From the NCBI RefSeq assembly GCF_988243305.1, contig NZ_OZ547136.1: DNA of 64,000 bases. The stretch is one strand, 5' to 3'. The position numbers were made by a program, and so were the translations under genes. The notes beneath the pieces were generated by a model. The model did no database searches, had not been told where the DNA came from, and saw nothing but the letters and a program-made list of their open reading frames with translations. Shown in pieces: positions 6,325 to 21,294 of the stretch; position 1 is the first letter of the stretch, and every line of letters starts with the position of its first letter.

Positions 6325-7389
6325 TTATGATTGCTCAGCTTCAGTCTTATCCGATGATTTCTTATTTCTGCGGCTGAAGAACCCGGCAATTAACATATAG
6401 AAGAGAGGAATATAAAAGATTGCCAGTATCGTAGCAGTGATCATCCCTCCAACCACACCAGTACCGATGGCATGTTTACTTCCGGAACTTGCTCCAGTCG
6501 AGACAGCCAGTGGGATAACCCCCATTACAAATGCCAGCGAAGTCATAATTATCGGTCTTAACCTCACTCTCGCCGCTTCAACAGCAGCCTCTTTAATGCT
6601 TAGTCCTTCTTTCTCATGCAATTCACGAGCAAACTCCACGATAAGTATGGCATTTTTCGCAGACAGCCCTATTGTTGTTAATAAACCGACCTGGAAAAAG
6701 ACATCGTTACCAAGGCCGCGCAACAAAGTAGCACAGACAGCCCCCAGGACACCAAGCGGAACAACCAGCATGACCGAGAAAGGAATGCTCCAGCTTTCAT
6801 ACAGTGCAGCCAGACACAGAAAGACGATCAACAGTGAAAGTGCATATAGTGCAGGAGCCTGAGAACCTGAAAGTCGTTCCTCAAAAGACAAACCTGTCCA
6901 GGAAATATGGAAACCTTCGGGAAGTCTTGCCGCAATATCCTCAATTGCTTTCATTGCATCCCCGGAACTGTATCCTGGTGCCGGTTCCCCCAGGATTTCG
7001 ACAGCAGAGATACCATTATATTGCTCCAGTTTTGGTGAGCCATAAATCCATTTGCCTGTTGCAAAAGAGGCAAAGGAAACCATGTCGCCATCACTGTTAC
7101 GGACATACCATTTATCAAAATCCTGCGGTGATATACGTGAGCCGGGTTCGCCCTAAATATAGACTTTTTTCACCCGTCCACGATCGTTAAAATCATTTAC
7201 ATACATCGAACCCCAGGCTGCTGGCATTATGTTGTCGACGTCGCTCATGCTCAGTTTAAGCGCCTGAACTTTCTCGTCATCAATCAGAATCTGGAACTGA
7301 GGCTCATCGTTCATGCCGTTAGGACGAACCATGTTTAACGCTGGACTTTTCGCCGCTTCAGCAAGAAGCTGATTTCGGGCCTGGATCAT
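6325..7389 (-). pseudogene. RND efflux transporter (AcrB/AcrF-like), C-terminal remnant, frameshifted and 5'-truncated by IS2
   Basis: ORFs 6325-7083 and 7153-7389 match the C-terminal third of AcrB-type pumps (VRPNGM...[27 protein letters not shown]...[13 protein letters not shown]) in two frames; upstream part absent, IS2 end at 7482. Confidence 0.7.
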
Positions 7390-7481
7390 TTTTTCATGGC
7401 CAGCTCCGCTACGATCCTCGAGGAACAGGTCAAACCCTGTAGCATTCCCCAGTTCTGATACGGCAGGGGGCGTTTTAAAAC

Positions 7482-7838
7482 TAGACTAGCCCCCAGAATC
7501 TCCAGACAACCAATATCACTTAAATAAGTGATAGTCTTAATACTAGTTTTTAGACTAGTCATTGGAGAACAGATGATTGATGTCTTAGGACCGGAGAAAC
7601 GCAGACGGCGTACTACACAGGAAAAGATCGCTATTGTTCAGCAGAGCTTTGAGCCGGGAATGACGGTCTCCCTTGTTGCCCGGCAACACGGTGTGGCAGC
7701 CAGCCAGTTATTTCTCTGGCGCAAGCAATACCAGGAGGGAAGTCTTACTGCTGTGGCCGCAGGAGAACAGGTCGTTCCTGCCTCTGAACTTGCTGCTGCC
7801 ATGAAGCAGATTAAAGAACTCCAGCGCCTGCTGAACAA
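7482..7838 (+). mobile_element. IS2 left end, truncated about 360 bp into the element
   Basis: tagactagcccccagaatctccagacaaccaatatcacttaaataagtgatagtc matches the IS2 left inverted repeat region; orfA (InsC) sequence diverges from IS2 after ...KELQRLL. Confidence 0.75.
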
Positions 7839-7863
7839 AACGCCGGATGTCTCCCGGCTCTGA
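7573..7863 (+). pseudogene. IS2 orfA (InsC) truncated, with a foreign 9-codon tail
   Basis: [56 protein letters not shown]... is IS2 InsC-like; the C-terminal residues do not continue as IS2. Confidence 0.7.
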
Positions 7864-8030
7864 AATTAAGGCTTCGGTTATTTGCACGAAATGTTCCTTT
7901 TCAAACCCTGTTGAATTTTGTTAAGCCGGTGCAGACACACGGAAAACGCACATCAACACCGGACGGTACGATACAAACACCAGTGACTGGCGGGACGAAG
8001 GGAATGACGAATCAGTCAGGAAATGATGAC
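7836..8030. repeat. Copy B of the roughly 180-bp conserved non-coding element (inverted relative to copy A)
   Basis: See copy A; lies between the IS2 truncation point and the small ORF/alpA. Confidence 0.5.
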
Positions 8031-8141
8031 AAACAGTTGGCAGACCAGAGGAGTCAGCAGAAAGATGAGCGGGAGTGTCGCCAGCATCGGGGACAGGGCT
8101 GATTTCCGCAATACCAGCGCCGGCATTGCAACACGTTTCAT
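8016..8141 (-). CDS. Hypothetical 41-aa hydrophobic peptide, translationally coupled to the AlpA-family gene
   Basis: MKRVAMPALVLRKSALSPMLATLPLIFLLTPLVCQLFVIIS; its ATG overlaps the alpA stop in an ATGA arrangement. Not in the ORF track (below 60 aa). Confidence 0.3.
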   Translation of the reverse strand: MKRVAMPALVLRKSALSPMLATLPLIFLLTPLVCQLFVIIS

Positions 8142-8371
8142 GCTGCTGCTCCTCGTGATTCCTCAATTCGCTGCTGCATCCACTGCTCCACTTCACTTTT
8201 GTACCAGCGGCTGCTGCGCCCCAGTTTGATGGGTTTAGGGAAATGACCTTCACTGATCAGCTTGTAAAACCATTTATCGGTCATACCGGTGAAACTGGTG
8301 ATGTAGTTCATGTCGATCAGGGGATCGTCGGCACGCAGTAACACGCTGTCGTGGCTTGTTGTGGTCAACAT
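8138..8371 (-). CDS. AlpA-family phage/island transcriptional regulator (excisionase-like HTH)
   Basis: 77 aa; ...YITSFTGMTDKWFYKLISEGHFPKPIKLGRSSRWYKSEVEQW matches AlpA-family DNA-binding proteins. Confidence 0.7.
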   Translation of the reverse strand: MLTTTSHDSVLLRADDPLIDMNYITSFTGMTDKWFYKLISEGHFPKPIKLGRSSRWYKSEVEQWMQQRIEESRGAAA

Positions 8372-8439
8372 GGTCAGAATGTCCTTTGTGAGATTTATGA
8401 AGTTTGTGCGAATGCAGGGAAAGATGCTGAACCGAGCTT

Positions 8440-9015
8440 TCAGAACGGTCCTGCAGATCCGGGATAGCCGGGATTACCGGCGAGGCAACGGGCTTCCGGA
8501 TCGCACACACCACGACGATCGCGGGCGAAATCACTGAACGCCCATATCAACTCTTTGAGGATGTTTTCACAGTCCGGTGAACGACTGTCCAGCACCACAT
8601 CCCGGGTGATCTGCTTCTGATACTGCTTTGCTTCACCCGGTGACGCGAAGCCCAGTACGTTGCTCCAGGCATCCAGAATCAGCCGGTCCAGTTCAGGGCC
8701 GTCGAAATACTCCTGTCTGACACACAGCACCACGTGGTATTCCGGCTTTTCAGGATGACGGGTCAGGAGCCAGCAGAGATCTCGTCCAGGTGTTGCATTC
8801 ATCAGCGCACTGACGGTTTCGATAAAGTCCATACCGAACCAGATCTTTCTGCTGCTGAAGGTACGGTCATATTCACATGGCAGACGAAGCAGGATCCGTC
8901 GTATCCGGGAGCCGGACTGCTCACGCAGCGCACGCTCAAGGACACCGATGATTTTGTTCTGATAAGACGGCCAGAAGGGTGCCAGGCTATAGTCGAAATA
9001 AGGGATAGCATTCAT
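8440..9015 (-). CDS. YfjJ/YagK-like (inovirus Gp2 family) island protein
   Basis: 191 aa from MNAIPYF (start trimmed from the ORF track); family assignment from memory of CP4-57-type islands. Confidence 0.45.
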   Translation of the reverse strand: MNAIPYFDYSLAPFWPSYQNKIIGVLERALREQSGSRIRRILLRLPCEYDRTFSSRKIWFGMDFIETVSALMNATPGRDLCWLLTRHPEKPEYHVVLCVRQEYFDGPELDRLILDAWSNVLGFASPGEAKQYQKQITRDVVLDSRSPDCENILKELIWAFSDFARDRRGVCDPEARCLAGNPGYPGSAGPF

Positions 9016-9272
9016 AAGATATGCTCCGTTATGCGCAGCCCACAATGCGTCCTGCCCGTGAATGAGCTGACGTGTTATAGCTTGCGGATGGGGTTGATGG
9101 AATAAGTGAAGAACCGAAGCAGAACGGGAAGATCAGGTCACCGACAAGGGACAGAACACCGGATGTGGTTAAGAGTGAATGATCTCCGTTGACTTCAGTT
9201 CACATCATTAAGCAAGGTGGTAAGGTTTTACCGACGGAATGTTTCCAGGACAGGAAGCTCAGGATTTAAGCT

Positions 9273-9839
9273 TCAGAAGTGAGGGTTACGAGGACGCCCT
9301 GCAGCAGGACGTTCAGGAACTTCATTGCAGCCGTAGGCACACAGCCCGTCTTTTTGCTCTTCTTTTGCCAGATAATGCAGGGCACCGCGAATATTATCGA
9401 TGCTTTCAGGATCGTTGTGGCGCACAGGAATGTTGATGTTGTATGTATAATGCGGCTGATATGTACAGCGGTGTGCCGAACCGCTGTTATGTGTAATAGA
9501 CCGCCAGCATTCCGTAATCCGCTCCGCAAAGGGATATATTTTTTTAACCCTCTGACGATCGATCCACAAAACCGCATGCGCATGAAAACCATGATCAGCC
9601 GTCCATTCAATCACCCAGAAGAAACCAACGATATTTTCAAATTGTTCCACCTGCTCCAGCAGCATACGCAACTGCAATTCAAGCCAGCGATGATCAGGTT
9701 GTAAGAAATCGGGCGTATCTTTCCTGTAGAAGAAATCCATCCGTAAGGCCCGCAGGCAGGAATAGCGTGCCATCATTTGATTGATGTGATTGTCAAGTAA
9801 AGCGGTAAAAAACCAGTTTGGTGTGTAAGATTTAGGCAT
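9273..9839 (-). CDS. YfjJ/YagK-like (inovirus Gp2 family) island protein
   Basis: 188 aa; HxH motif (FHAHAVLWIDRQ) as in Gp2-like proteins; adjacent paralogue at 8440-9015. Confidence 0.45.
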   Translation of the reverse strand: MPKSYTPNWFFTALLDNHINQMMARYSCLRALRMDFFYRKDTPDFLQPDHRWLELQLRMLLEQVEQFENIVGFFWVIEWTADHGFHAHAVLWIDRQRVKKIYPFAERITECWRSITHNSGSAHRCTYQPHYTYNINIPVRHNDPESIDNIRGALHYLAKEEQKDGLCAYGCNEVPERPAAGRPRNPHF

Positions 9840-10671
9840 GTTGATGACTCCTGAAAGTTAATGATGTTTTAAGCTCTGTGAACGAATTAATGCTTTCGCT
9901 CATAACGGTAATAACTTACAGATGGTATTTATCAGGCATGCTGTAGCAGAATGGATACGACGGGTTATTAACGATACGCAGCATTATGCAGAAAGAAATG
10001 GATTATCTGATGGTATTAGCTAAAGAGATGAGATAAACGAGGAGTAAAGAAAATACAGACTCAATAAAACATCACGAAATACTGTAAAATACGAGCTAAA
10101 ACCCCACTACCTGGAGATTAAGAAACATATTGCGACCAATCACATCATAAACTACAAACTTGCTCTCAGTGAGTCTGCAAAAACGTGTACAAGGCCAACA
10201 CATATCTGTAACCTGATAAAATCATACACTCTCATTTAATCTGTTAAAAACAACTCACTTCAAAACATGAGCGTTAACGGGTACACGGTACCAGAATAAA
10301 ATATACCATGGATGGATAATTTTCATTTTGTTTAACATACAAGATAATCAGAAACGAACAAATATAATCAGGAATTCACTCTGTTAATTTCATTGTTTAT
10401 CCTGCGCTGTTAAACATGACGAAATCATGGATACCTTATCAAAGAGTAAACATCCAGTTAATCAGTGATGACAGAAGTATTGATATTTACCAGAATAGTT
10501 AAAACACTTCAGGTCAACAACAATCATCGTTAAGTCAATACAGTTCATTATGGATAATGACTAAAATCAATTGCTGTTTCAGTGAAGACTGATAACAGGT
10601 AGATATTAGCAACAACGTAGTAAAATAACTTATCTGAGTATCGTATGAATTACAGTAGTTATGATTGAATG

Positions 10672-10721
10672 AAGGAGAAGGTGGAGAAGGTGGAGAAGGT
10701 GGAGAAGGTGGAGAAGGTGGA
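10672..10721. repeat. Tandem repeat, 9-bp unit GTGGAGAAG, about 5.5 copies
   Basis: Direct read: (g/a)aggagaag then gtggagaag x4 then gtgga; embedded in a purine-rich plus strand within a 1.3 kb AT-rich non-coding region. Confidence 0.9.
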
Positions 10722-11157
10722 TACCATGATAATGGTGGCAATGAAGATTAGACAAGGAAGGGAGTAAGTATAATCGGGTGAGGGTCAGAGTAATGGAATG
10801 AGTAAAGATAGAGAGTAAGTAAAAACAGAGTGAATAAAGACAAAGTGAATATAATTATAGTAATAAACCTAAATTAAAAATACTTGCGTATAATGGAAAG
10901 AAATAAGAATTAAGAATAGCGTATGAGTCGTAGTCATGACCTGGCTACAAAAAGTCATTCCATCTGGCTGTCATTCAGACACACTCCCCAAACATTCGAC
11001 TACAAAGTACTAACAGAAAATTAACTGATGTATTATTCTTCTGCCCTGAATGAACATCCGGAAGTATAATCTCCCCTAGCTTCACGTTCACCGGGAAAAA
11101 CGAAGCTATTTACTTTGATGATCGCTGACGAAAAACCGAACAGGCAGTTGCATAATC

Positions 11158-12252
11158 ATGGACAACAGAGAAAAAGAGATACTCAGGATCCTGCGTCACA
11201 ACCCACTGATCCAGCAGAATGAAATTGCTGAGATTTTACAAATCAGTCGGTCGCGTGTTGCTGCACACATTATGGATCTGATGCGCAAAGGTGCGATTAA
11301 AGGGAAAGGCTACATCCTGACAGAACAGGAATACTGTGTTGTTCTTGGGGCGATTAACATGGATATCCGTGGGGTGGCGGATATCCATTATCCACAGAAA
11401 TCCTCCAGTCCGGGCAGTATTTACTGCTCTGCCGGAGGTGTCGGACGCAACATCGCCCATAATCTCGCCCTTCTGGGCCGCAATGTGCATCTGATATCTG
11501 CTGTAGGCAATGATTTTTATGGCGAAACATTACTGGAGCAGACCCGCCTGGCCGGCGTTAATGTCACCAATTGTATTCGACTGAACGGACAAAATACTTC
11601 AACTTATGTCTCCATCGCCGACCTACAGGCAGAAACAGTGATGGCGATTAATGATACCCATATTCTGCAACAACTGACGCCGCAGTTGCTGGACGCCTCA
11701 CGTATGTTAATCCGTCACGCTGGCGTGGTGCTGGCTGACTGTAATCTGACACCTGCCGCCCTTGAATGGATCTTTACGGTCGCTGACGGCATTCCCGTTT
11801 TTATTGATACAGTGTCGAAATTTAAGGCTGTTAATGTAAAAAACTGGCTTCCGCATATCCATACCCTGAAACCCACACAAAAAGAACTGGAGATATTATG
11901 GGGTTCCCCTGTCAACAATGAGACCGATCTACTCACCGCAGTGAACGCACTACATCAGCAGGGTGTGCAACAGATTTTTGTCTGGATGGGAGATGAATCC
12001 GTTTTCTGTAGCCAAAGAGAGGGAGAACAATTTCTGCTCACACCGCCCGTTCATGCCGTTGTGGACAGCTTTGGTGCAGATGATGGCTTTATGGCAGGTC
12101 TGCTTTACAGTTTTCTGGAAGGAAGTAGTTTCCAGGAAAGTGCTCACTTTGCGATGGCATGTGCAGCACTGTCACGTGCCAGCACCAGCATCAATAACCC
12201 AACACTTTCCGTTAATAACGCGCAATATCTGTTAAAAACATCCCGGGGGTAA
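11158..12252 (+). CDS. YeiI-like protein: N-terminal winged-helix HTH fused to a PfkB-family sugar kinase domain
   Basis: 364 aa; N-terminal HTH (ILRILRHNPLIQQNEIAEILQISRSRVAAHI), PfkB motifs (GGVGRNIAHNLALLG; DSFGADDGFMAG). Confidence 0.65.
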   Translation: MDNREKEILRILRHNPLIQQNEIAEILQISRSRVAAHIMDLMRKGAIKGKGYILTEQEYCVVLGAINMDIRGVADIHYPQKSSSPGSIYCSAGGVGRNIAHNLALLGRNVHLISAVGNDFYGETLLEQTRLAGVNVTNCIRLNGQNTSTYVSIADLQAETVMAINDTHILQQLTPQLLDASRMLIRHAGVVLADCNLTPAALEWIFTVADGIPVFIDTVSKFKAVNVKNWLPHIHTLKPTQKELEILWGSPVNNETDLLTAVNALHQQGVQQIFVWMGDESVFCSQREGEQFLLTPPVHAVVDSFGADDGFMAGLLYSFLEGSSFQESAHFAMACAALSRASTSINNPTLSVNNAQYLLKTSRG

Positions 12253-12270
12253 CACCCGGGATTGTATTTT

Positions 12271-13521
12271 TTATGCCAGCCCAATGAAAAAACCAGCGAT
12301 AGTCGCACTCATCAGGTTTGACAGGGTGGCCGCCGCCAGTGCACGCATGCCCAGTTGTGCAATTTCAGGTGCACGCTGAGGTGATATGGCTGAAAAGGCA
12401 CCCACCACCACACCAATGGAGCCAAAGTTGGCAAAACCACACAGTGCAAAAGAAATAATTGCGGTGGTTTTCACATCAAGCGTACTGCCTGGCTGTAAAT
12501 AGGGTGAAAGATTGAGATAAGCAACAAATTCGTTAATTGCCAGCTTCTGACCAATCAGACTTCCTGCCAGTGAAGCATCCGCCCAGTCAACGCCCATGAT
12601 CCACGCAAGGGGAGCCAAAATCCAGCCGAAAATGCCCTCAAGGGTAATATTACCATAACCAAACCAGCCTCCGATACCACCGATTATACCGTTAATCAGA
12701 GCAATAATAGCAACAAAGGTCATCACTACCGTTGCAACTCCGACAGCGATTTTCAACCCGGTCATCGCCCCGCTGGCCACTGCTTCAATAACACTTTTGG
12801 GAGGAGTATCAGTGAAAGAAAGATTTTCAAAAGTGACTTTTGATTCTTCTGTGGCCGGACTCAGAATACGGGCAAAAAGGATCCCCCCCGGGATCGCCAT
12901 CAACGACGCCGCCAGCAAATAGTCAATCGGAACCCCCATCCCGGCATAGCCGATCATCATTGAACCGGCAATCGAAGCCATCCCACTGCAGATGACAGTA
13001 AATAATTCATTACGATTCAGACGATTAATAAACGGTTTTACAATTGCCGGGATCTCGTTTTGCCCCAGGAAAATTGTCGTTACTGCCACAAATGACTCAA
13101 CTTTACTTATGTTCAGAGCTTTCTGAAAAATCCCCCCCAGAATACGGATAAGCCCCCCCATCACTCTGATGTAGTACAGCAGACTGATAAGCGCTGTAAC
13201 AAAAATGATGGCAGGAAGTACACGGAAGGCGAAGATAAAACCCGCCCCATCGAACAGTACGTCCATTTTGTCCCCTACCAGAGAGCCAAAAATAAAGGCA
13301 CTGCCCGCATCACTGTAAGACATAATTTTATGTACGCCCAGTGCAGCCTGTTCAACCAGCCATTTCCCCGGGGGGAAATAGAGCATGATCCCACCAATCG
13401 CGATTTGAAGAACCAGTGCAGCTCCTGTGGTACGTAAACTGATACGTTTTTTATTCACTGATAGTAGAAATGCAATTATCAGCAATACTGCCATTCCCAC
13501 TATACTTCTCATGATGTCCAT
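12271..13521 (-). CDS. psuT: NupC-family nucleoside transporter (PsuT/YeiM-like)
   Basis: 416 aa polytopic membrane protein with NupC-like sequence; position next to psuG/psuK. Confidence 0.65.
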   Translation of the reverse strand: MDIMRSIVGMAVLLIIAFLLSVNKKRISLRTTGAALVLQIAIGGIMLYFPPGKWLVEQAALGVHKIMSYSDAGSAFIFGSLVGDKMDVLFDGAGFIFAFRVLPAIIFVTALISLLYYIRVMGGLIRILGGIFQKALNISKVESFVAVTTIFLGQNEIPAIVKPFINRLNRNELFTVICSGMASIAGSMMIGYAGMGVPIDYLLAASLMAIPGGILFARILSPATEESKVTFENLSFTDTPPKSVIEAVASGAMTGLKIAVGVATVVMTFVAIIALINGIIGGIGGWFGYGNITLEGIFGWILAPLAWIMGVDWADASLAGSLIGQKLAINEFVAYLNLSPYLQPGSTLDVKTTAIISFALCGFANFGSIGVVVGAFSAISPQRAPEIAQLGMRALAAATLSNLMSATIAGFFIGLA

Positions 13522-13604
13522 AATGCTCTCCCCTTATACCTGAACCAGACACGGAATCTGGTTCAGGTAATTTCGGGCGACCTCACACTGCCCGTTCATT
13601 TATA

Positions 13605-14540
13605 TCAGACAATTTGTTGATATTCTTTTGCTATCTCACAGGCCAGAACTGCGTTGTTGAATACCAGCTGAATATTTGATTTCAGACTGTCACCACCGGT
13701 TAATTCTGCCACCCGTGCCAGCAGGAACGGTGTGCTTTCTTTACCGGTAATGCCCTGCACTTCCGCTTCTTTTACGGCCTGGTCAATTGCTGCATTAATT
13801 TTCTCTTCCGCCATGGCGTAAGCTTCCGGAATCGGATTGGCAACAACCAGACCACCGTTCAGGCCGGTTTGCCATTTCACTGCCATCGCGCGGGCAATCT
13901 CTTTTGCACTGTCCAGACGTATACTGACCTCAAACGGACTGGTGCGGCAAAAAAATGCCGGCAATGATCTTGTCTGATAGCCAATTAAAGGTACACCAAA
14001 TGTTTCTAAATATTCCGTGGTTAACCCTAAATCGAGAATGGATTTCGCGCCTGCACAAACCACGGTGACATTAGTATGTGCCAGTTCCTGTAGGTCGGCT
14101 GAAATATCAAAAGTGTGTTCTGCACCGCGATGAACGCCGCCAATTCCTCCTGTGGCAAAAACTTTAATTCCGGCAAGAGCAGCAATAATCATGGTTGAAG
14201 CTACCGTTGTTGCACCATGTTTTCCTTCAGCAATAACGAAAGGTAAATCCCGGCGACTGACTTTGGTAACGTTATGTCCTTCGCGACCCAGTAATTCAAT
14301 CTCATCTTTACTTAACCCGACTTTCATTACACCGCCAATAACGGCAATGGTGGCTGGTACTGCTCCGTGTTTACGTATAGTTTCTTCGACTTCAATAGCC
14401 GTCTGAGCATTCTGAGGAAAAGGCATACCATGTGAGATAATTGTTGACTCGAGAGCAACAACAGGTTTTTTACTGTTAATGGCATCCTGTACTTCCGGTG
14501 AAATTTGCAGTAATTCAGAAGAAATGGTTATTTCAGACAT
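13605..14540 (-). CDS. psuG: Pseudouridine-5'-phosphate glycosidase (PsuG/YeiN, IndA-like)
   Basis: 311 aa; close to E. coli YeiN by memory (…VVALESTIISHGMPFPQN…GGIGGVHRG…). Confidence 0.7.
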   Translation of the reverse strand: MSEITISSELLQISPEVQDAINSKKPVVALESTIISHGMPFPQNAQTAIEVEETIRKHGAVPATIAVIGGVMKVGLSKDEIELLGREGHNVTKVSRRDLPFVIAEGKHGATTVASTMIIAALAGIKVFATGGIGGVHRGAEHTFDISADLQELAHTNVTVVCAGAKSILDLGLTTEYLETFGVPLIGYQTRSLPAFFCRTSPFEVSIRLDSAKEIARAMAVKWQTGLNGGLVVANPIPEAYAMAEEKINAAIDQAVKEAEVQGITGKESTPFLLARVAELTGGDSLKSNIQLVFNNAVLACEIAKEYQQIV

Positions 14541-15468
14541 TCTGTTTCTCCACTAAGCTTTTAACGTTAGCAACAGATAATTCAGGATTATTGGTATACT
14601 CACTGGCCAGCGCCATTGATGAACACCCCTGTGCAAATCGAATGGAATCAATAAATGGCATATTATCAACCCAGCAGGAAGCCAGCCCTGCCATCATGGC
14701 ATCCCCTGCCCCCGTAACGTTCACCACCTGTGTTTTTACTGGCGGCGACCAGCCGCTGGCTCCGTACAGTTCGCTGTAATAAACTCCATCCCCCCCCATG
14801 CTGAGCACAAGGCGATTCAGACCATGTGTATGGAACCATACCGCCACTTTTTCAGCATCATTCCGATCTGAAAGCGAAATACCACTGAGTGTTTCTGCTT
14901 CAAGCCGGTTGGGCTTGAGAGTATGAATTTGTGCTAAATGTTCACGAATTTTGACACACTTCCATGCAGATACCGGGTCAACAAATACCGGAACCTTACC
15001 TGCATTATTCAGTAGCCAGACAAGTGTTGACTCACTGATATTACAGTCTGCAACAATAACCTTCGCTCCCTGAATAAAATCAATATGCTGTGATAAAAAC
15101 TCAGCTGAAATATGTTCACTAATCGTCATGTCATTTATTGCCACCAACATTTCACCGGTTTTATCGAGAAGTGATAAATAACTTGAGGTATTTTCTCCAT
15201 TAACAATCAGACATTTATCAACATTAACGCCGGACTGAGTCGTTTGTGCTAATAATGATTGCCCGTAGAAATCATCTCCCACAGCTGACATCAGCCATGA
15301 GTTTTTACCCAGCAGAGCAAGATTATGTGCAATATTACGCCCCACACCTCCGGGCGTGAATTTAATCTTCCCCGGGTTAGAATCAGCATAATTTAAGGAG
15401 GCATACGAATATCCGGCTATATCTATATTGGCAGAGCCAATTGTGATGATGTATTCCTTATCACACAT
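14533..15468 (-). CDS. psuK: Pseudouridine kinase (PsuK/YeiC, PfkB family)
   Basis: 311 aa from MCDKEY with RBS aggag; PfkB motifs GGVGRNIAHNLALLG and GAGDAMMAG; overlaps psuG start by 8 nt. Confidence 0.7.
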   Translation of the reverse strand: MCDKEYIITIGSANIDIAGYSYASLNYADSNPGKIKFTPGGVGRNIAHNLALLGKNSWLMSAVGDDFYGQSLLAQTTQSGVNVDKCLIVNGENTSSYLSLLDKTGEMLVAINDMTISEHISAEFLSQHIDFIQGAKVIVADCNISESTLVWLLNNAGKVPVFVDPVSAWKCVKIREHLAQIHTLKPNRLEAETLSGISLSDRNDAEKVAVWFHTHGLNRLVLSMGGDGVYYSELYGASGWSPPVKTQVVNVTGAGDAMMAGLASCWVDNMPFIDSIRFAQGCSSMALASEYTNNPELSVANVKSLVEKQNV

Positions 15469-16003
15469 GGCACATCTCCTGACATTTAAAAACACAAAAA
15501 TAATAAATCTGTATTTCTATTCGACCACGCAGATAGAGTTGAACATATATTCAAAATCAAACATGTGTTCACTTTATGCCTGTTTTTAGAAATGTAAATA
15601 CCAGTCCAGAATCAAAAAGTGAAAAATGAAAACAGGATCACAATTTTTATCGTTAATCCATGTTGTCCTTATCCGGTTTTATGGCGTTGCCCTGTTTCAT
15701 CAGGTTATTTGCATGAACGGAATAAATACCGGAGATGACAGGAAACACCATAAGATATTCAGGATGTTACGATGAATTTCATGAGGATCGCTAAAAATGA
15801 GCCTGTTTAATAATTTTATGCAAACACCTTATACCAGGGCTTCCCTTCGGAGATATCAATGACCCCGACAGCGCTCTCACTGCCCTGGTTGCTGGTTTCC
15901 GATATCCTCTTAACTTGCAGGCTCATCCCGCATTTCACTCATGGTGAATAAGGCACATAATGGTCTGGAGTCAATTCTGGCTTACGATTTGTAAATATAA
16001 TAA

Positions 16004-16456
16004 TTAAAGCGTTCTCAAAAGTCTGGCTGGATTACCGGCATACACGCCTTTTACCAGCACGGGCTTTGTAACCACACTACCAGCCCCAATCACTGCTCCA
16101 CTGCAAATTTCTGTTGTTAAAATAGTCGCTCCGCTACCCACTGTTACAGTGTTACCTAATACGATACGTATCCAGCTTTCTGCAGAGGCATCGGGACCAC
16201 CACACTTAAAAAGATCATTAGCAAAAGTTACGCCATGACCGATGAAACAGCCATCACCTAAAATGACGTTCTCACAGATGAAACTGTGGGACTGAATTCG
16301 GCTCCGCTTGCCAATGATGCATCCCTTCTGTATTTCCACAAAGGGACCGATAAAAACATCATCCCCCAGTTCACATTCATAGAGGTTTACTGGCATGACG
16401 ACTTTCACATTTTCACCAAATTTCACATCACGAATGCCGCTGTTAATAACGTGCAT
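16004..16456 (-). CDS. Hexapeptide-repeat (left-handed beta-helix) acyl/acetyltransferase
   Basis: 150 aa with repeated [LIV]G-x-x-x-x hexapeptides (IGKRSRIQSHSFICENVILGDGCFIGHGVTFAND...VTVGSGATIL). Confidence 0.55.
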   Translation of the reverse strand: MHVINSGIRDVKFGENVKVVMPVNLYECELGDDVFIGPFVEIQKGCIIGKRSRIQSHSFICENVILGDGCFIGHGVTFANDLFKCGGPDASAESWIRIVLGNTVTVGSGATILTTEICSGAVIGAGSVVTKPVLVKGVYAGNPARLLRTL

Positions 16457-16976
16457 ATCCGTTGTATCCTCCCTCAGGATGATTCTTATCAGAACATTTC
16501 ACCTGTCAGAATATTCCCGGTAATGCGATACAAGATCCTGTCTCACCGGGTACCACGTGTTATTGCCCGTATCCTTTTGCCCGTTACGAGTGTACAACCG
16601 GTTTTGTATTTTGCAATCCAGGCCTGTTACACCAGAGCATCCTCCCACTGCCCCCTCACTGCTCAGTCCGGGATTCAAAGTCATCTTCCAGCACTAAACC
16701 TCATACCAGTTCTGAACCTTCCCTCGCCAGCAGTCAGGATCGTACGGTTCACCACTATCCTCTTCCGTGAATGGCAGTAAGTGAGCAGCACCAAAATAAA
16801 TCGGTACTTCCAATGACAGACAGTGAAAGTGTAAGGGGAAATATGAACATGAGAATGGAAGCAGATAAAAATACCGTTTCATGACTTCAGGGCGATTATC
16901 AGAAAACGAGCTAAGGGCGTCAGCCAACGTCCTGACCGTGGTATACGCTCAGGCACCGGATGCTGTTTTACCGGGT

Positions 16977-17708
16977 TCACCTGCCATCCAGTAGACGCCC
17001 CGGCCCACGACTGCAACCATAATTACGTTGCCCGGAACCGTCATGCTGCTTCGTCTCATATTTCACGAGATAACTGGCTCTGTTCCGGGCTTTCTGCAGC
17101 GCTTCCACATCACCACGCTTGATCCAGAGCACAGCGGCTTCACCTGGCTTTTTGTCTGAAGCCTTCCTGGTATCAGAACATCCACCCGACAAAGGCGTGT
17201 CATCGGAAGAAGGGCGAGCATCAGACGATGTCGGTTTACGGGAAGGCGTCCACCTGGAAAAATGGACCAGGCCATCGCCTTGCCAGGGCTCAAGATGCAG
17301 GGCGCTGCACCATGCCTCCTGGATCATCGTCGCCAGCGAAGACGGTTCGCTGAAATCCCCGAGCGAGCACCAGGTATCTTTGTTGAGCAGTAATATCACG
17401 TGATAATGTTTCCTGCCATACATCTTGCCGAACTCCCGGCACCAGAAATAACGCAGGCTGGTTGCATGCACACGCTGATTGGCCCATCTTTTTTTCCGCT
17501 GGTAAGCCTGAATTTTGGCTTTCAGGGATGCGAAAAAACGGGAAATCACCGCTGAATCCGGATCGGGATCCATGATGGTGACAGGCATATACTCAGGGAA
17601 ACGTAAATCCACCCGGATTAACGAGACGGCACGGTGTTGCACCAGGGCACTGTTGAGAATACTTTCAAAACGGGATAACCAGTAATCATTGTGTATTGGT
17701 TGATTCAT
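16977..17708 (-). CDS. YfjJ/YagK-like (inovirus Gp2 family) island protein, third paralogue
   Basis: 243 aa; HYHVILLLNKDTW motif; resembles the proteins at 8440 and 9273. Confidence 0.45.
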   Translation of the reverse strand: MNQPIHNDYWLSRFESILNSALVQHRAVSLIRVDLRFPEYMPVTIMDPDPDSAVISRFFASLKAKIQAYQRKKRWANQRVHATSLRYFWCREFGKMYGRKHYHVILLLNKDTWCSLGDFSEPSSLATMIQEAWCSALHLEPWQGDGLVHFSRWTPSRKPTSSDARPSSDDTPLSGGCSDTRKASDKKPGEAAVLWIKRGDVEALQKARNRASYLVKYETKQHDGSGQRNYGCSRGPGRLLDGR

Positions 17709-18377
17709 GATGAGAGATCTCCGTTGATTTGGATTGACTTCACATCATTAATCACTGCGGTAAAACTTTACGGCATCCCGCCATTGAGCAACGCCAATGG
17801 CTCCTGATTAAAACAGAATGAATCGTCCCGTAACGAAAAGATAATCCTGCACACGACAGCAAAACGTAAAACAACAGCATGAATGAGCTAAATGTCTAAA
17901 GAAAAACTGCCTTTTCACATTATTTTTCAGCGAGTAATCATACCAGCATCCCTAACATACGAAATCGCATCGTGATCGATCGCTGATTCGCCGAACAACT
18001 GATCGAATACACCGGAATCTGCACTAACATCCTGATGGGTAACGGAAGACTAAAAAACCAGTGTTCTATTGATTGCACGGAATGCCTGTGCGCTGGCCTG
18101 ACCAGTAAGCACAATTCTACGAGTAGTAAGATATCTACTCCAAAACCATGCGCAGTAGCCACCATATGTTGCCAGGGTGAAAAATAAGCTCAGAGCTATA
18201 GGGGAGTAATTCCCGTTAATGTCATCGCCGTACCTCAATCAGCTCACAAACTGGCTGAAACGTTAAGCTGAGGCCTTTATTCTTCAGATGTATTTTCCGG
18301 TTTACCTGTAAATTATCTTCTGATATTTATCACATTAGTAATTGTGCTGATTATCTACATACTTCAAGGTCTGAAAT

Positions 18378-18908
18378 ATGAAGCTAACAGAAGAAAGTCT
18401 GAATCTAGTCATTGACATCCTGAATGATTTGATCTGTGAAGGAAAAATGCTGAACGATGTGGAGCGCAGATCTCTGCTCAATGCAGTTATGGCAATTACA
18501 GCGGTAAAAGAACGTTCTGTCGTATCTGTATCATCCCGAAAAGAGCAAAGTAAGAAGGAGAAGAAGGAAAGAGAGATCGATCCTCGTTTCCCAAATGCTG
18601 GTGTGGCATGGAATGAGGCAGACGAGAGTTTATTGCGAGATGTTCTGGAGGATGTACCGGACGATGAAATTGGTAAACACCTTTTCTGGCTAGCAGAGAA
18701 ACTAGGGCGAACCCCGTACAGTGTAGCCTGTAAAGTCAGACAAATTAAGAAATTACCTGCAGAATGGAAGGATCAATTTCGTAAAATCTCTGACAGGATC
18801 CGTAGTTCTGGAATGTCAGTCAGTGAATATCTACAACGCCAGGGACTGTTAAGCCCAGAGTCAGGGGAAGAAAACAATCCTGTCAGTCATAACAACAATG
18901 TAGCTTAA
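18378..18908 (+). CDS. Hypothetical protein, 176 aa, lysine/glutamate-rich linker
   Basis: ORF on coding-like sequence bounded by AT-rich non-coding DNA; no recognisable motif. Confidence 0.45.
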   Translation: MKLTEESLNLVIDILNDLICEGKMLNDVERRSLLNAVMAITAVKERSVVSVSSRKEQSKKEKKEREIDPRFPNAGVAWNEADESLLRDVLEDVPDDEIGKHLFWLAEKLGRTPYSVACKVRQIKKLPAEWKDQFRKISDRIRSSGMSVSEYLQRQGLLSPESGEENNPVSHNNNVA

Positions 18909-20070: not shown

Positions 20071-21294
20071 TCATGAGCGCCATTTAAAATTACCATCCTG
20101 AATATCATATGACAATATATTTTCACTAAAGCATGAATTGTATATGTCTATTAACTCTGGAAAATTATCAGGATTCACCTTCAAATTCACTTGAATGTTA
20201 CGCTTAATTTCACCCAGCAGTTCTTCATGTGTGGATTTTATTATCCCTTTCTCATAATCGATAAATACACACATGTTCTTTATGAATTCAAAACCTTTTC
20301 CTGTATACAGTTTAATGAATGCCACCAGAGCAAACATTTCAAGATATAGCCATAATGCCACGTTAGTTTTTTGCAAAGTATAAAAAATTGAATTCGCCAC
20401 TCTTTTACTTATTGCTCTTTTATACTGTGATCGAGCAAGATTCAGTAGCGGAAGCTCTCGTTCAATAAATGAATGTGAAAAGACTGGATAAATTGATGTA
20501 GGAAACCTTTCAGGTCTTATGATATTTTCTATTTCCACCATAAATCTATCCATAGAAAGAAAGTCACTTTCTTTTTTTATTCTGGTATAGAGACCGCCTT
20601 TATTTCTTTCTGAGGTTTGTTTTCGTGCTATCCCCCCCAACACTTTCTCTAATTGTTTATTTATCTTCGTATAATTAAATACAACCATTCTTCTTATCAT
20701 CCTCGGAAGGATAATAATATCAGTGCTTGAATCACTTGAGCGGCAATTATTATTTATCCATGCAACTTCAAGTTGCAGTATCGGAACATTAACTTTTCTG
20801 GGGTGAATATCTCTCTGATATCGTTTTTTGTATGCGTTTTCATTAAGATATTCTCTGCTGTAGAGAAACTTATAGCAATATAATCTGATAATATCTTTTA
20901 TGTAAAATTTAAATAGTTCACCTGTAACAGATATATGTTTTCTGCTCAGTAACTCCTGTGTATTAAGCCATTCCCGTGACCGAAGCACACCCTTGTGAAA
21001 ACTTTTTCTTACTTGCTTTGAAGCACGCCATTGATGTAATATTTTTGCGTCCTCAATAATTCTCTTTCCCGTTTTATTTTTTGCAGCATCTCTTACTCTA
21101 TAAAATATCTCCCAGTCCAGACTTTTGTCATATCTACTAATTATACGACAAATATTCCTGACCCGACGATTCTCTTTATTTCGCTTCCATAGCTTATAAT
21201 GATCATCGCATAACCTTAAGGCATTTGCCTCATCAAATTCTGAAACAGGATTACTGCATTTTTTATTCCGACAGATACCTTTGTTTTTAGCCAT
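20071..21294 (-). CDS. Hypothetical basic protein, 407 aa, N-terminal Cys/His cluster (CRNKKCSNPV...CDDH), very AT-rich gene
   Basis: Long uninterrupted ORF in AT-rich DNA, divergent from the GTPase gene; no family recognised. Confidence 0.5.
   Translation of the reverse strand: MAKNKGICRNKKCSNPVSEFDEANALRLCDDHYKLWKRNKENRRVRNICRIISRYDKSLDWEIFYRVRDAAKNKTGKRIIEDAKILHQWRASKQVRKSFHKGVLRSREWLNTQELLSRKHISVTGELFKFYIKDIIRLYCYKFLYSREYLNENAYKKRYQRDIHPRKVNVPILQLEVAWINNNCRSSDSSTDIIILPRMIRRMVVFNYTKINKQLEKVLGGIARKQTSERNKGGLYTRIKKESDFLSMDRFMVEIENIIRPERFPTSIYPVFSHSFIERELPLLNLARSQYKRAISKRVANSIFYTLQKTNVALWLYLEMFALVAFIKLYTGKGFEFIKNMCVFIDYEKGIIKSTHEELLGEIKRNIQVNLKVNPDNFPELIDIYNSCFSENILSYDIQDGNFKWRS

Follow-up and report, generated by a model that had tools for sequence, protein, structure and literature searches.

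Two kinds of described system frame the gene considered here, which lies at 16004-16456 in a 64,000-nucleotide stretch of contig NZ_OZ547136.1 (RefSeq assembly GCF_988243305.1; "the window" below is the whole of that stretch), E. coli chromosomal DNA that forms a mosaic genomic island. The first kind is a set of solved sugar N-acetyltransferases: WlbB of Bordetella petrii (3mqg/3mqh), which acetylates the 3-amino group of UDP-2-acetamido-3-amino-2,3-dideoxy-glucuronate and is encoded in an O-antigen operon as part of a dehydrogenase/aminotransferase/acetyltransferase set, and QdtC (3fs8), a domain of FdtD (4mzu) and a Helicobacter pullorum enzyme (7s3u), which are dTDP-3-amino-3,6-dideoxyhexose N-acetyltransferases of S-layer or O-antigen pathways. 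The second is the kanosamine-6-phosphate/kanosamine pathway of the ntdABC/kabABC type, found in Bacillus subtilis and B. cereus; to our knowledge, these Bacillus operons include no β-helix acetyltransferase, flavin-containing monooxygenase (FMO) or SemiSWEET. The product of the window gene is predicted, from sequence profiles and a structural model, to group with the 3-amino-sugar N-acetyltransferases FdtD, QdtC, WlbB and the H. pullorum enzyme, and its nearest relatives adjoin a plasmid-borne pathway of the second kind.

The reading favored here, at a probability of roughly 0.45, is that the product would be an amino-sugar N-acetyltransferase that uses acetyl-CoA, its gene having been retained on its own for detoxification or as orphan immunity; among possible roles, detoxification or modification appears at any rate to be the best-supported. 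The gene is a common, already annotated accessory acetyltransferase and no new kind of system: the RefSeq entry for the identical protein (WP_000558152.1, in 100%-identical E. coli chromosomes) is simply called "acyltransferase". What can be added is that a protein present on at least 1000 contigs under generic names is now assignable to the 3-amino-sugar N-acetyltransferases, with concrete substrate candidates. Tracing the gene also exposed an unstudied kanosamine-type module with an FMO and a SemiSWEET, which occurs in plant and marine pathogens as well as on IncF/ColV plasmids, a clinically common group. That plasmid module lies outside the window and is a more interesting by-product than the window gene itself.

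Family assignment

The gene is the following:

16004-16456, minus strand: coding sequence of the hexapeptide-repeat N-acetyltransferase (stop codon 16004-16006, ATG 16454-16456, 150 aa; from the open reading frame list, Pfam and RefSeq)

A hexapeptide-repeat acyltransferase had been proposed for exactly this reading frame in a sequence-only reading, and Pfam, the fold model and the profile search of the PDB all agree with it. Pfam Hexapep (PF00132) matches the 150-aa protein in three stretches and scores 62.5 bits, well above its cut-off of 27 (E=1.9e-17). The profile search and substrate prediction that had been suggested as a check narrow the predicted chemistry to N-acetylation of a 3-amino sugar. 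A family profile built from 56 members and searched against all PDB sequences finds FdtD (6.4e-29), the H. pullorum dTDP-3-amino-sugar N-acetyltransferase (7s3u/7s43; 3e-27), QdtC (2.2e-24) and WlbB (8.1e-24); only after a gap of ~10^5-10^6 do GlmU (2e-18), Maa/LacA, Vat/CatB and the γ-carbonic anhydrases (~1e-13) follow. The window protein used as a single query finds QdtC, FdtD and WlbB at ~1e-10. Judged by PDB descriptions and paper titles, the five closest characterised enzymes all acetylate the C-3 amino group of a hexose.

The AlphaFold2 monomer model (predicted local distance difference test, pLDDT, 96; predicted template-modelling score, pTM, 0.89), with its short strands every ~6 residues, is a bare left-handed β-helix from residue ~8 to the C-terminal strands, and has no N-terminal globular domain. 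Its best Foldseek matches are WlbB (template-modelling score, TM, 0.88), FdtD (0.80) and 7s3u (0.80), and all top matches are β-helix enzymes. Structures of the YrdA type also reach TM ~0.75, a likeness generic to β-helices, and the fold by itself therefore does not settle the assignment.

Could the protein then be γ-carbonic-anhydrase-like (of the YrdA/PaaY type) and no acetyltransferase at all? Its resemblance to the YrdA structures would allow this, as would its two invariant or nearly invariant histidines, H57 and H74, which are 17 residues, one helix turn, apart. γ-Carbonic anhydrases have three zinc-binding histidines and a long C-terminal helix; here A79 occupies the place of the third histidine (+5), and the C-terminus is a β-strand. 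The profile score of ~1e-13 compares with 1e-24 to 1e-29 for the sugar N-acetyltransferases, the NCBIfam model NF050158 (YrdA/PaaY/CaiE) gives 30 bits against a cut-off of 250, and the occurrence of homologs in gene triads with a dehydrogenase and an aminotransferase (below) argues for acetyl transfer. The carbonic-anhydrase alternative is extremely improbable. As for H57 and H74, they might serve this family in particular as a catalytic base, or might bind a phosphate or hydroxyl group.

Residues E62, N80 and D81 align with E141, N159 and D160 of QdtC (in the numbering of the PDB-search alignment), which we take to be the residues that hold the hexose; Thoden et al. 2009 is reportedly the source of these roles. 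In the 56 sequences N80 is invariant, D81 is at least 90% conserved and E62 is near-invariant. N80-D81 also aligns with the "TND/CND" of FdtD and the H. pullorum enzyme, so that all three dTDP-sugar enzymes share with the window family the N-D motif that follows the β-helix loop, and QdtC shares the glutamate as well. They differ from the window protein in overall sequence (23-27% identity) and, in the case of QdtC and FdtD, in carrying extra turns or domains. WlbB resembles the window protein in being a bare β-helix without an N-terminal domain; its motif is N-V in place of the invariant N80-D81, it is longer (~190 aa against 150 aa) and only ~25% identical, and it belongs to an operon where the window gene is solitary.

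Other assignments were tried and set aside. None of the curated NCBIfam models reaches its cut-off with the window protein. Class I sugar N-acetyltransferases (PglD, PerB, VioB) combine an N-terminal globular domain with a catalytic histidine (PMC9271549); a PglD/PerB/VioB/NeuD-type identity was rejected on the missing N-terminal domain and on TIGR03570, which with 62.3 bits stays far below its cut-off of 160.8, the match covering only its last ~48 residues, profile positions 154-202. The β-helix-only enzymes of the QdtC/WlbB/FdtD type, by contrast, are often called Class II. Models for Vat, CatB, Maa, LacA, WbbJ and WcaF give 27-38 bits against cut-offs of 183-475. The PADLOC models of anti-phage defence find no match at E≤0.01.

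The model scores also bear on the proposition that the enzyme modifies xenobiotics or antibiotics more broadly, its target being, for example, the kanosamine (3''-amino) ring of kanamycin-class aminoglycosides. Kanosamine is indeed the 3-amino-glucose ring of kanamycin, and β-helix resistance enzymes exist (Vat, CatB and ApmA). Against this, the Vat, CatB, Maa and LacA models stop at 27-37 bits with cut-offs of 300-475, ApmA falls outside the 60 best PDB matches, and a protein present on so many contigs has drawn no resistance annotation. We regard the proposition as very unlikely. (ApmA is reported to be a β-helix acetyltransferase that confers apramycin resistance; PMC7885111.)

The nearest relatives and their partner genes

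A plasmid-type paralog of the window protein (WP_000670960.1; 70.7% aa identity) is carried by several hundred E. coli plasmids. On the IncF plasmid pYLMB49a (locus L008:6255-11607) it is convergent to a five-gene operon encoding, in order, a DegT aminotransferase, an S6PP-type HAD-IIB phosphatase, a Gfo/Idh/MocA dehydrogenase, a SemiSWEET and an FMO-like flavoprotein. The acetyltransferases of this module (class A below) are 67-71% identical to the window protein and are encoded by a sixth gene, 28-32 bp from the end of the operon; in every instance of the module that gene is convergent to the operon, never inside it. For the aminotransferase the matches are 7kz3 (4e-91) and B. subtilis NtdA (3e-88); for the phosphatase only NtdB is close (5.7e-47). 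Because of these matches to NtdA and NtdB, the module is read as a kanosamine-6-phosphate/kanosamine pathway of the ntdABC/kabABC type to which an N-oxygenase-type flavoprotein and an exporter would have been joined. (An NtdC-like identity of the dehydrogenase was not confirmed, the PDB search giving generic Gfo/Idh/MocA matches only.) The flavoprotein has an FMO-like Pfam match at 8.8e-45, and one source names a homolog "SidA/IucD/PvdA family". The enterobacterial module shares with the Bacillus sets the NtdA/KabA-like aminotransferase, the NtdB-like phosphatase and the Gfo/Idh/MocA dehydrogenase, and adds acetyltransferase, FMO and SemiSWEET; its probable product, which it would also export, is an N-oxidised amino sugar derived from kanosamine.

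The plasmid hosts of the module are IncF/ColV plasmids of E. coli, E. albertii, Salmonella and Klebsiella, and a plasmid of Erwinia sp. E602 also carries the six-gene arrangement. A search that started from the FMO found the same arrangement in Photobacterium damselae, Erwinia amylovora and Pantoea ananatis (FMO identity 63-88%); Yersinia canariae has a lone FMO with neither pathway nor acetyltransferase. The module is often decayed, being intact in 59 of the 535 matching plasmid records, and what decay leaves behind may be the acetyltransferase only or, equally, FMO/SemiSWEET remnants from which the acetyltransferase is gone. A paper on a plasmid of enteroaggregative E. coli mentions "ntdABC" plus an acetyltransferase, by annotation only (PMC5320562). 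The literature search found no functional study of the module, no paper joining kanosamine with SemiSWEET, and none on the module in Erwinia, Pantoea or Photobacterium; the six-gene module is apparently conserved and unstudied.

The module is rare, whereas relatives of the acetyltransferase occur (counting one genome per species) in at least 566 species, including, at ~60% identity, Vibrio, Aeromonas, Helicobacter, Bacteroidota and Verrucomicrobia; the 150-aa length is kept across the Enterobacterales at 62-96% identity. Gene contexts were mapped in 94 loci by calling open reading frames, clustering them and comparing neighbours, and they fall outside the module into three sorts. In class B, a Gfo/Idh/MocA dehydrogenase gene, the acetyltransferase gene (~62% identical homologs) and a DegT aminotransferase gene follow one another co-directionally, a set of enzymes like that of WlbB, inside glycan clusters of Helicobacter, Bacteroidota and Verrucomicrobia that also hold formyltransferase, amidotransferase and methyltransferase genes; this triad is the classical layout for making 3-acetamido sugars. 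In class C, the acetyltransferase (a ~63% homolog) is a syntenic chromosomal orphan of Klebsiella, Raoultella, Citrobacter, Kosakonia, Kluyvera and Enterobacter, in the order malEFG - psiE - (GNAT) - acetyltransferase - pgi or yjbFGH, the GNAT gene often standing directly before it. The remaining orphans are scattered over Mixta, Edwardsiella, Serratia, a Pantoea agglomerans megaplasmid, a Rahnella plasmid and the leading region of a Salmonella IncFII plasmid, in contexts that all differ from one another and none of which has partner genes.

Two details of these contexts may be recorded. H. pullorum NCTC 12824 and one further locus have two acetyltransferase copies in a single glycan cluster, each in its own triad, both H. 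pullorum copies being distinct from the solved H. pullorum enzyme 7s3u (~26% identity). In Serratia a GNAT gene overlaps the 3' end of the acetyltransferase gene by 4 bp.

Does the window enzyme serve such a glycan pathway from a distance, acting in trans as a nucleotide-sugar 3-N-acetyltransferase with a dehydrogenase and an aminotransferase encoded elsewhere (at an O-antigen or capsule locus) and altering the surface glycan? Island- or prophage-borne acetyltransferases such as NeuO do change surface glycans, the window gene sits on a mobile island, its 62% homologs are members of glycan-cluster triads, and the closest solved relatives all use UDP- or dTDP-3-amino sugars. Set against these points are the following. 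1) Unlike genes of the QdtC, WlbB or FdtD type, the window gene has no adjoining sugar 3-dehydrogenase and DegT aminotransferase genes. No glycosyltransferase, aminotransferase or sugar dehydrogenase is found near it (the absence of partners such as glycosyltransferases had been part of the sequence-only reading, and stands), no sugar-pathway partner occurs in the 64-kb window, and the five kanosamine-type module proteins find no tblastn match in the whole window at E≤1e-3. 2) The gene is present at ≥95% nucleotide identity in 508 of 5426 complete E. coli genomes (~9%), in many lineages, and stands partnerless in dozens of genera at unrelated loci, a breadth not easily squared with an enzyme that needs a serotype-specific pathway. 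3) The pathway of its nearest clade-mates includes no nucleotidyltransferase at all; unlike the pathways of QdtC or FdtD, the module cannot itself supply its acetyltransferase with a nucleotide sugar, and because of this a free or phosphorylated sugar is plausible as the substrate. Action in trans is unlikely on this balance.

Membership in a housekeeping family with a partner operon elsewhere would speak against a detoxifying role. The partner operons that the family does have, the kanosamine-type module and the glycan triads, are not housekeeping, and the detoxification or immunity reading is the sharper for it.

Orphan copies and their proposed role

A neighbour-joining tree (100 bootstraps) places the window gene in a subclade made up entirely of orphans (100/100): those of E. 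coli islands, Citrobacter, the Salmonella IncFII plasmid, P. agglomerans, Cedecea, Mixta, Mangrovibacter and Rahnella. A wider clade (98/100) unites this subclade with the copies linked to the module and with the orphans scattered between those, separate from classes B and C and from Vibrio, Serratia and Aeromonas. Codon differences are predominantly synonymous (54 synonymous and 24 non-synonymous against Citrobacter, 68 and 29 against Mixta), which indicates that the orphan lineage is under purifying selection. Since the ATG start and the 150-aa length are kept in homologs of more than 20 genera, the gene is judged to be intact and no fragment. In E. coli, 2.3 kb around it are 100% identical in several hundred complete genomes; in 133 of the 508 genomes that have the gene, the match begins at query position 61.

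If the nearest relatives belong to a module, is the window copy more than a leftover of one? It might be a stranded tailoring relic of the six-gene module that hitch-hiked into the island and has neither substrate nor selected role here. IucD and IucB together form a hydroxamate, and the pairing of FMO and acetyltransferase in the module resembles theirs; the module, moreover, decays readily on plasmids and leaves acetyltransferase-only remnants. A robust lineage of orphans in at least eight genera, with an intact 150-aa frame and a synonymous excess, points the other way, to long-term purifying selection on the orphan copies themselves, as does, for the tailoring role, the invariably convergent position of the acetyltransferase beside the operon. 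The relic seems to us about as improbable as action in trans. Immunity fits better than tailoring because the gene is a separate convergent unit, because orphans outnumber modules and because the orphans are under selection, although this is no proof.

The mechanism proposed for the favored detoxification or orphan-immunity role is the following. A left-handed β-helix enzyme of the trimeric type, in which acyl-CoA binds between the subunits, would take an acetyl group from acetyl-CoA. It would transfer this group to a 3-amino-3-deoxy hexose of gluco configuration that is not nucleotide-linked, at the 3-amino (or 3-hydroxylamino) position. The island copy would work alone, from its own short promoter, and acetylation would neutralise kanosamine (3-amino-3-deoxy-D-glucose) or an N-oxidised derivative of it, supplied by neighbours that carry the six-gene module, or by Bacillus. 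Left unacetylated, the compound could act as an amino-sugar antimetabolite: kanosamine is taken up by glucose transport, phosphorylated, and inhibits glucosamine-6-phosphate synthase (PMC9272926). The substrate, the protective benefit and the retention by orphans of the specificity of module-linked copies are all inferred.

A more ambitious version would have the enterobacterial clade supply immunity within a system of small-molecule interference that is so far undescribed, in which the module exports an FMO-N-oxidised kanosamine derivative through SemiSWEET and free-standing copies protect non-producers. This is possible, if on balance doubtful. Were the acetyltransferase the module's immunity factor, its orphans in gut and plant communities would mark both exposure to a new amino-sugar antimetabolite and resistance against it. 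Orphan bacteriocin immunity genes offer an analogy, with the difference that the target proposed here is a sugar antimetabolite. Pat/Bar (phosphinothricin), Pac (puromycin) and Maa/LacA are analogous in function only, each being a stand-alone acetyl-CoA enzyme that neutralises an amino compound or a sugar. Genes of the Pat/Pac type are found beside producer clusters and also free-standing; Pat and Pac have the GNAT fold, unlike the window protein. Maa and LacA are O-acetyltransferases (of non-metabolisable sugars), and their models give the window protein 30-34 bits against cut-offs of 314-347.

Several observations weigh against detoxification or immunity. 1) The solved relatives all act on nucleotide-linked sugars, not on free ones. 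2) QdtC, WlbB and FdtD have nothing that corresponds to H57 and H74. 3) The window subclade is sister to the module-linked copies and not nested among them, and the order inside their common clade has a bootstrap of only ~52%. 4) The module enzyme could instead tailor the product, N-hydroxylation by the FMO being followed by acetylation to a hydroxamate, and the orphans would then need another explanation. 5) Preferential retention of the acetyltransferase on decayed plasmids was looked for and is not shown, remnants occurring both with it and without it. 6) Chromosomal and plasmid-type copies neither exclude one another nor associate in E. coli: they are found together in at most 43 genomes, where chance predicts ~37.

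The gene in its island

Four further features describe the surroundings of the gene:

16457-16509, minus strand: short 5' region (sequence, promoter scan and upstream alignment)
11158-15495, no single strand: pseudouridine/nucleoside module of HTH-PfkB kinase, CNT transporter, PsuG and PsuK (Pfam PfkB, Indigoidine_A and Nucleos_tra2; RefSeq names)
16977-17708, minus strand: YagK/YfjJ-family gene (YagK_YfjJ_C 9.4e-36, REP_ORF2-G2P 5.6e-09; RefSeq "inovirus Gp2 family protein")
16000-17885, no single strand: co-moving unit of acetyltransferase gene, 520-bp gap, YfjJ-like gene and ~180 bp more (blastn against an island of E. coli strain NCTC11129)

Pfam and RefSeq bear out the position assigned to the gene in the sequence-only reading, alone between a pseudouridine module and a YfjJ-like gene. 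Downstream on the same strand, past a 508-bp gap, lie a PfkB kinase gene (pseudouridine kinase in RefSeq), Indigoidine_A/PsuG and the CNT nucleoside transporter, beyond which a divergent kinase gene with a helix-turn-helix (HTH) domain, HTH-PfkB, completes the module; upstream, 520 bp separate the gene from its YagK/YfjJ-family neighbour. The comparison with other genomes that had been suggested separates the two sides. Window positions 16000-17885 correspond to 9001-10884 of the NCTC11129 locus at 94.1% identity (blastn), in a different island context; the acetyltransferase gene there is 98% identical, the homology stops 4 nt past its stop codon, and H-NS and HTH pseudogenes stand where the window has the pseudouridine module. 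Because the homology covers only 16000-17885, the acetyltransferase gene is taken to travel with the YfjJ-like gene and the pseudouridine module to be unrelated; a functional tie to that module was rejected on the same grounds. The YagK/YfjJ-family gene is a co-travelling neighbour typical of integrative elements and no functional partner of the acetyltransferase. The pseudouridine module, for its part, looks inserted between YagK/YfjJ-family genes at ~9291-9857 and 16977-17708; the corresponding stretch of the NCTC11129 locus, with the pseudogenes, is 6353-9005.

The short 5' region has a GGAGG Shine-Dalgarno sequence ~11 nt before the ATG (the complement of 16468-16472) and, by consensus match only, a σ70-like site found by promoter scan, CTGACA-16-AAGAAT at 16509..16482. 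Upstream conservation in the alignment across the window's subclade and genera is limited to ~45 nt before the ATG. The G+C content of the gene is 45%, that of the whole window 49%. A terminator scan around the gene finds no terminator-like site, and an RNA element in the large upstream gaps was rejected, there being no Rfam match at E≤1 in 15400-17100. An antisense frame at 16286-16780 (plus strand, 164 aa) was also rejected as unannotated and not conserved in homologs, a low density of antisense stops being typical of hexapeptide genes. No small reading frames are annotated in the 520-bp gap (16457-16976) in two RefSeq genomes.

A hairpin-like motif, CCGCTCnGTGCCAGGAGCGGAC, lies ~110-150 nt before the acetyltransferase start on the Salmonella IncFII plasmid and in Pantoea, Cedecea, Rahnella and Mixta. 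The E. coli window lacks this motif, which could mark a mobility boundary or be what is left of a terminator.

The island adjoins the yghD/gsp genes, and the 64-kb window holds no tRNA gene. Two of the island's reading frames, 18378-18908 (plus strand, 176 aa) and 20071-21294 (minus strand, 407 aa), are "hypothetical protein" in RefSeq and have no Pfam or PADLOC match; the G+C content of their segment is 36.6%, against 49% for the window. Just before the window start, between grpO and grpP, RefSeq annotates fragments of a group II intron maturase and reverse transcriptase (locus L001:3558-4646), which interrupt the glycyl-radical propanediol (grp) microcompartment locus that precedes the island.

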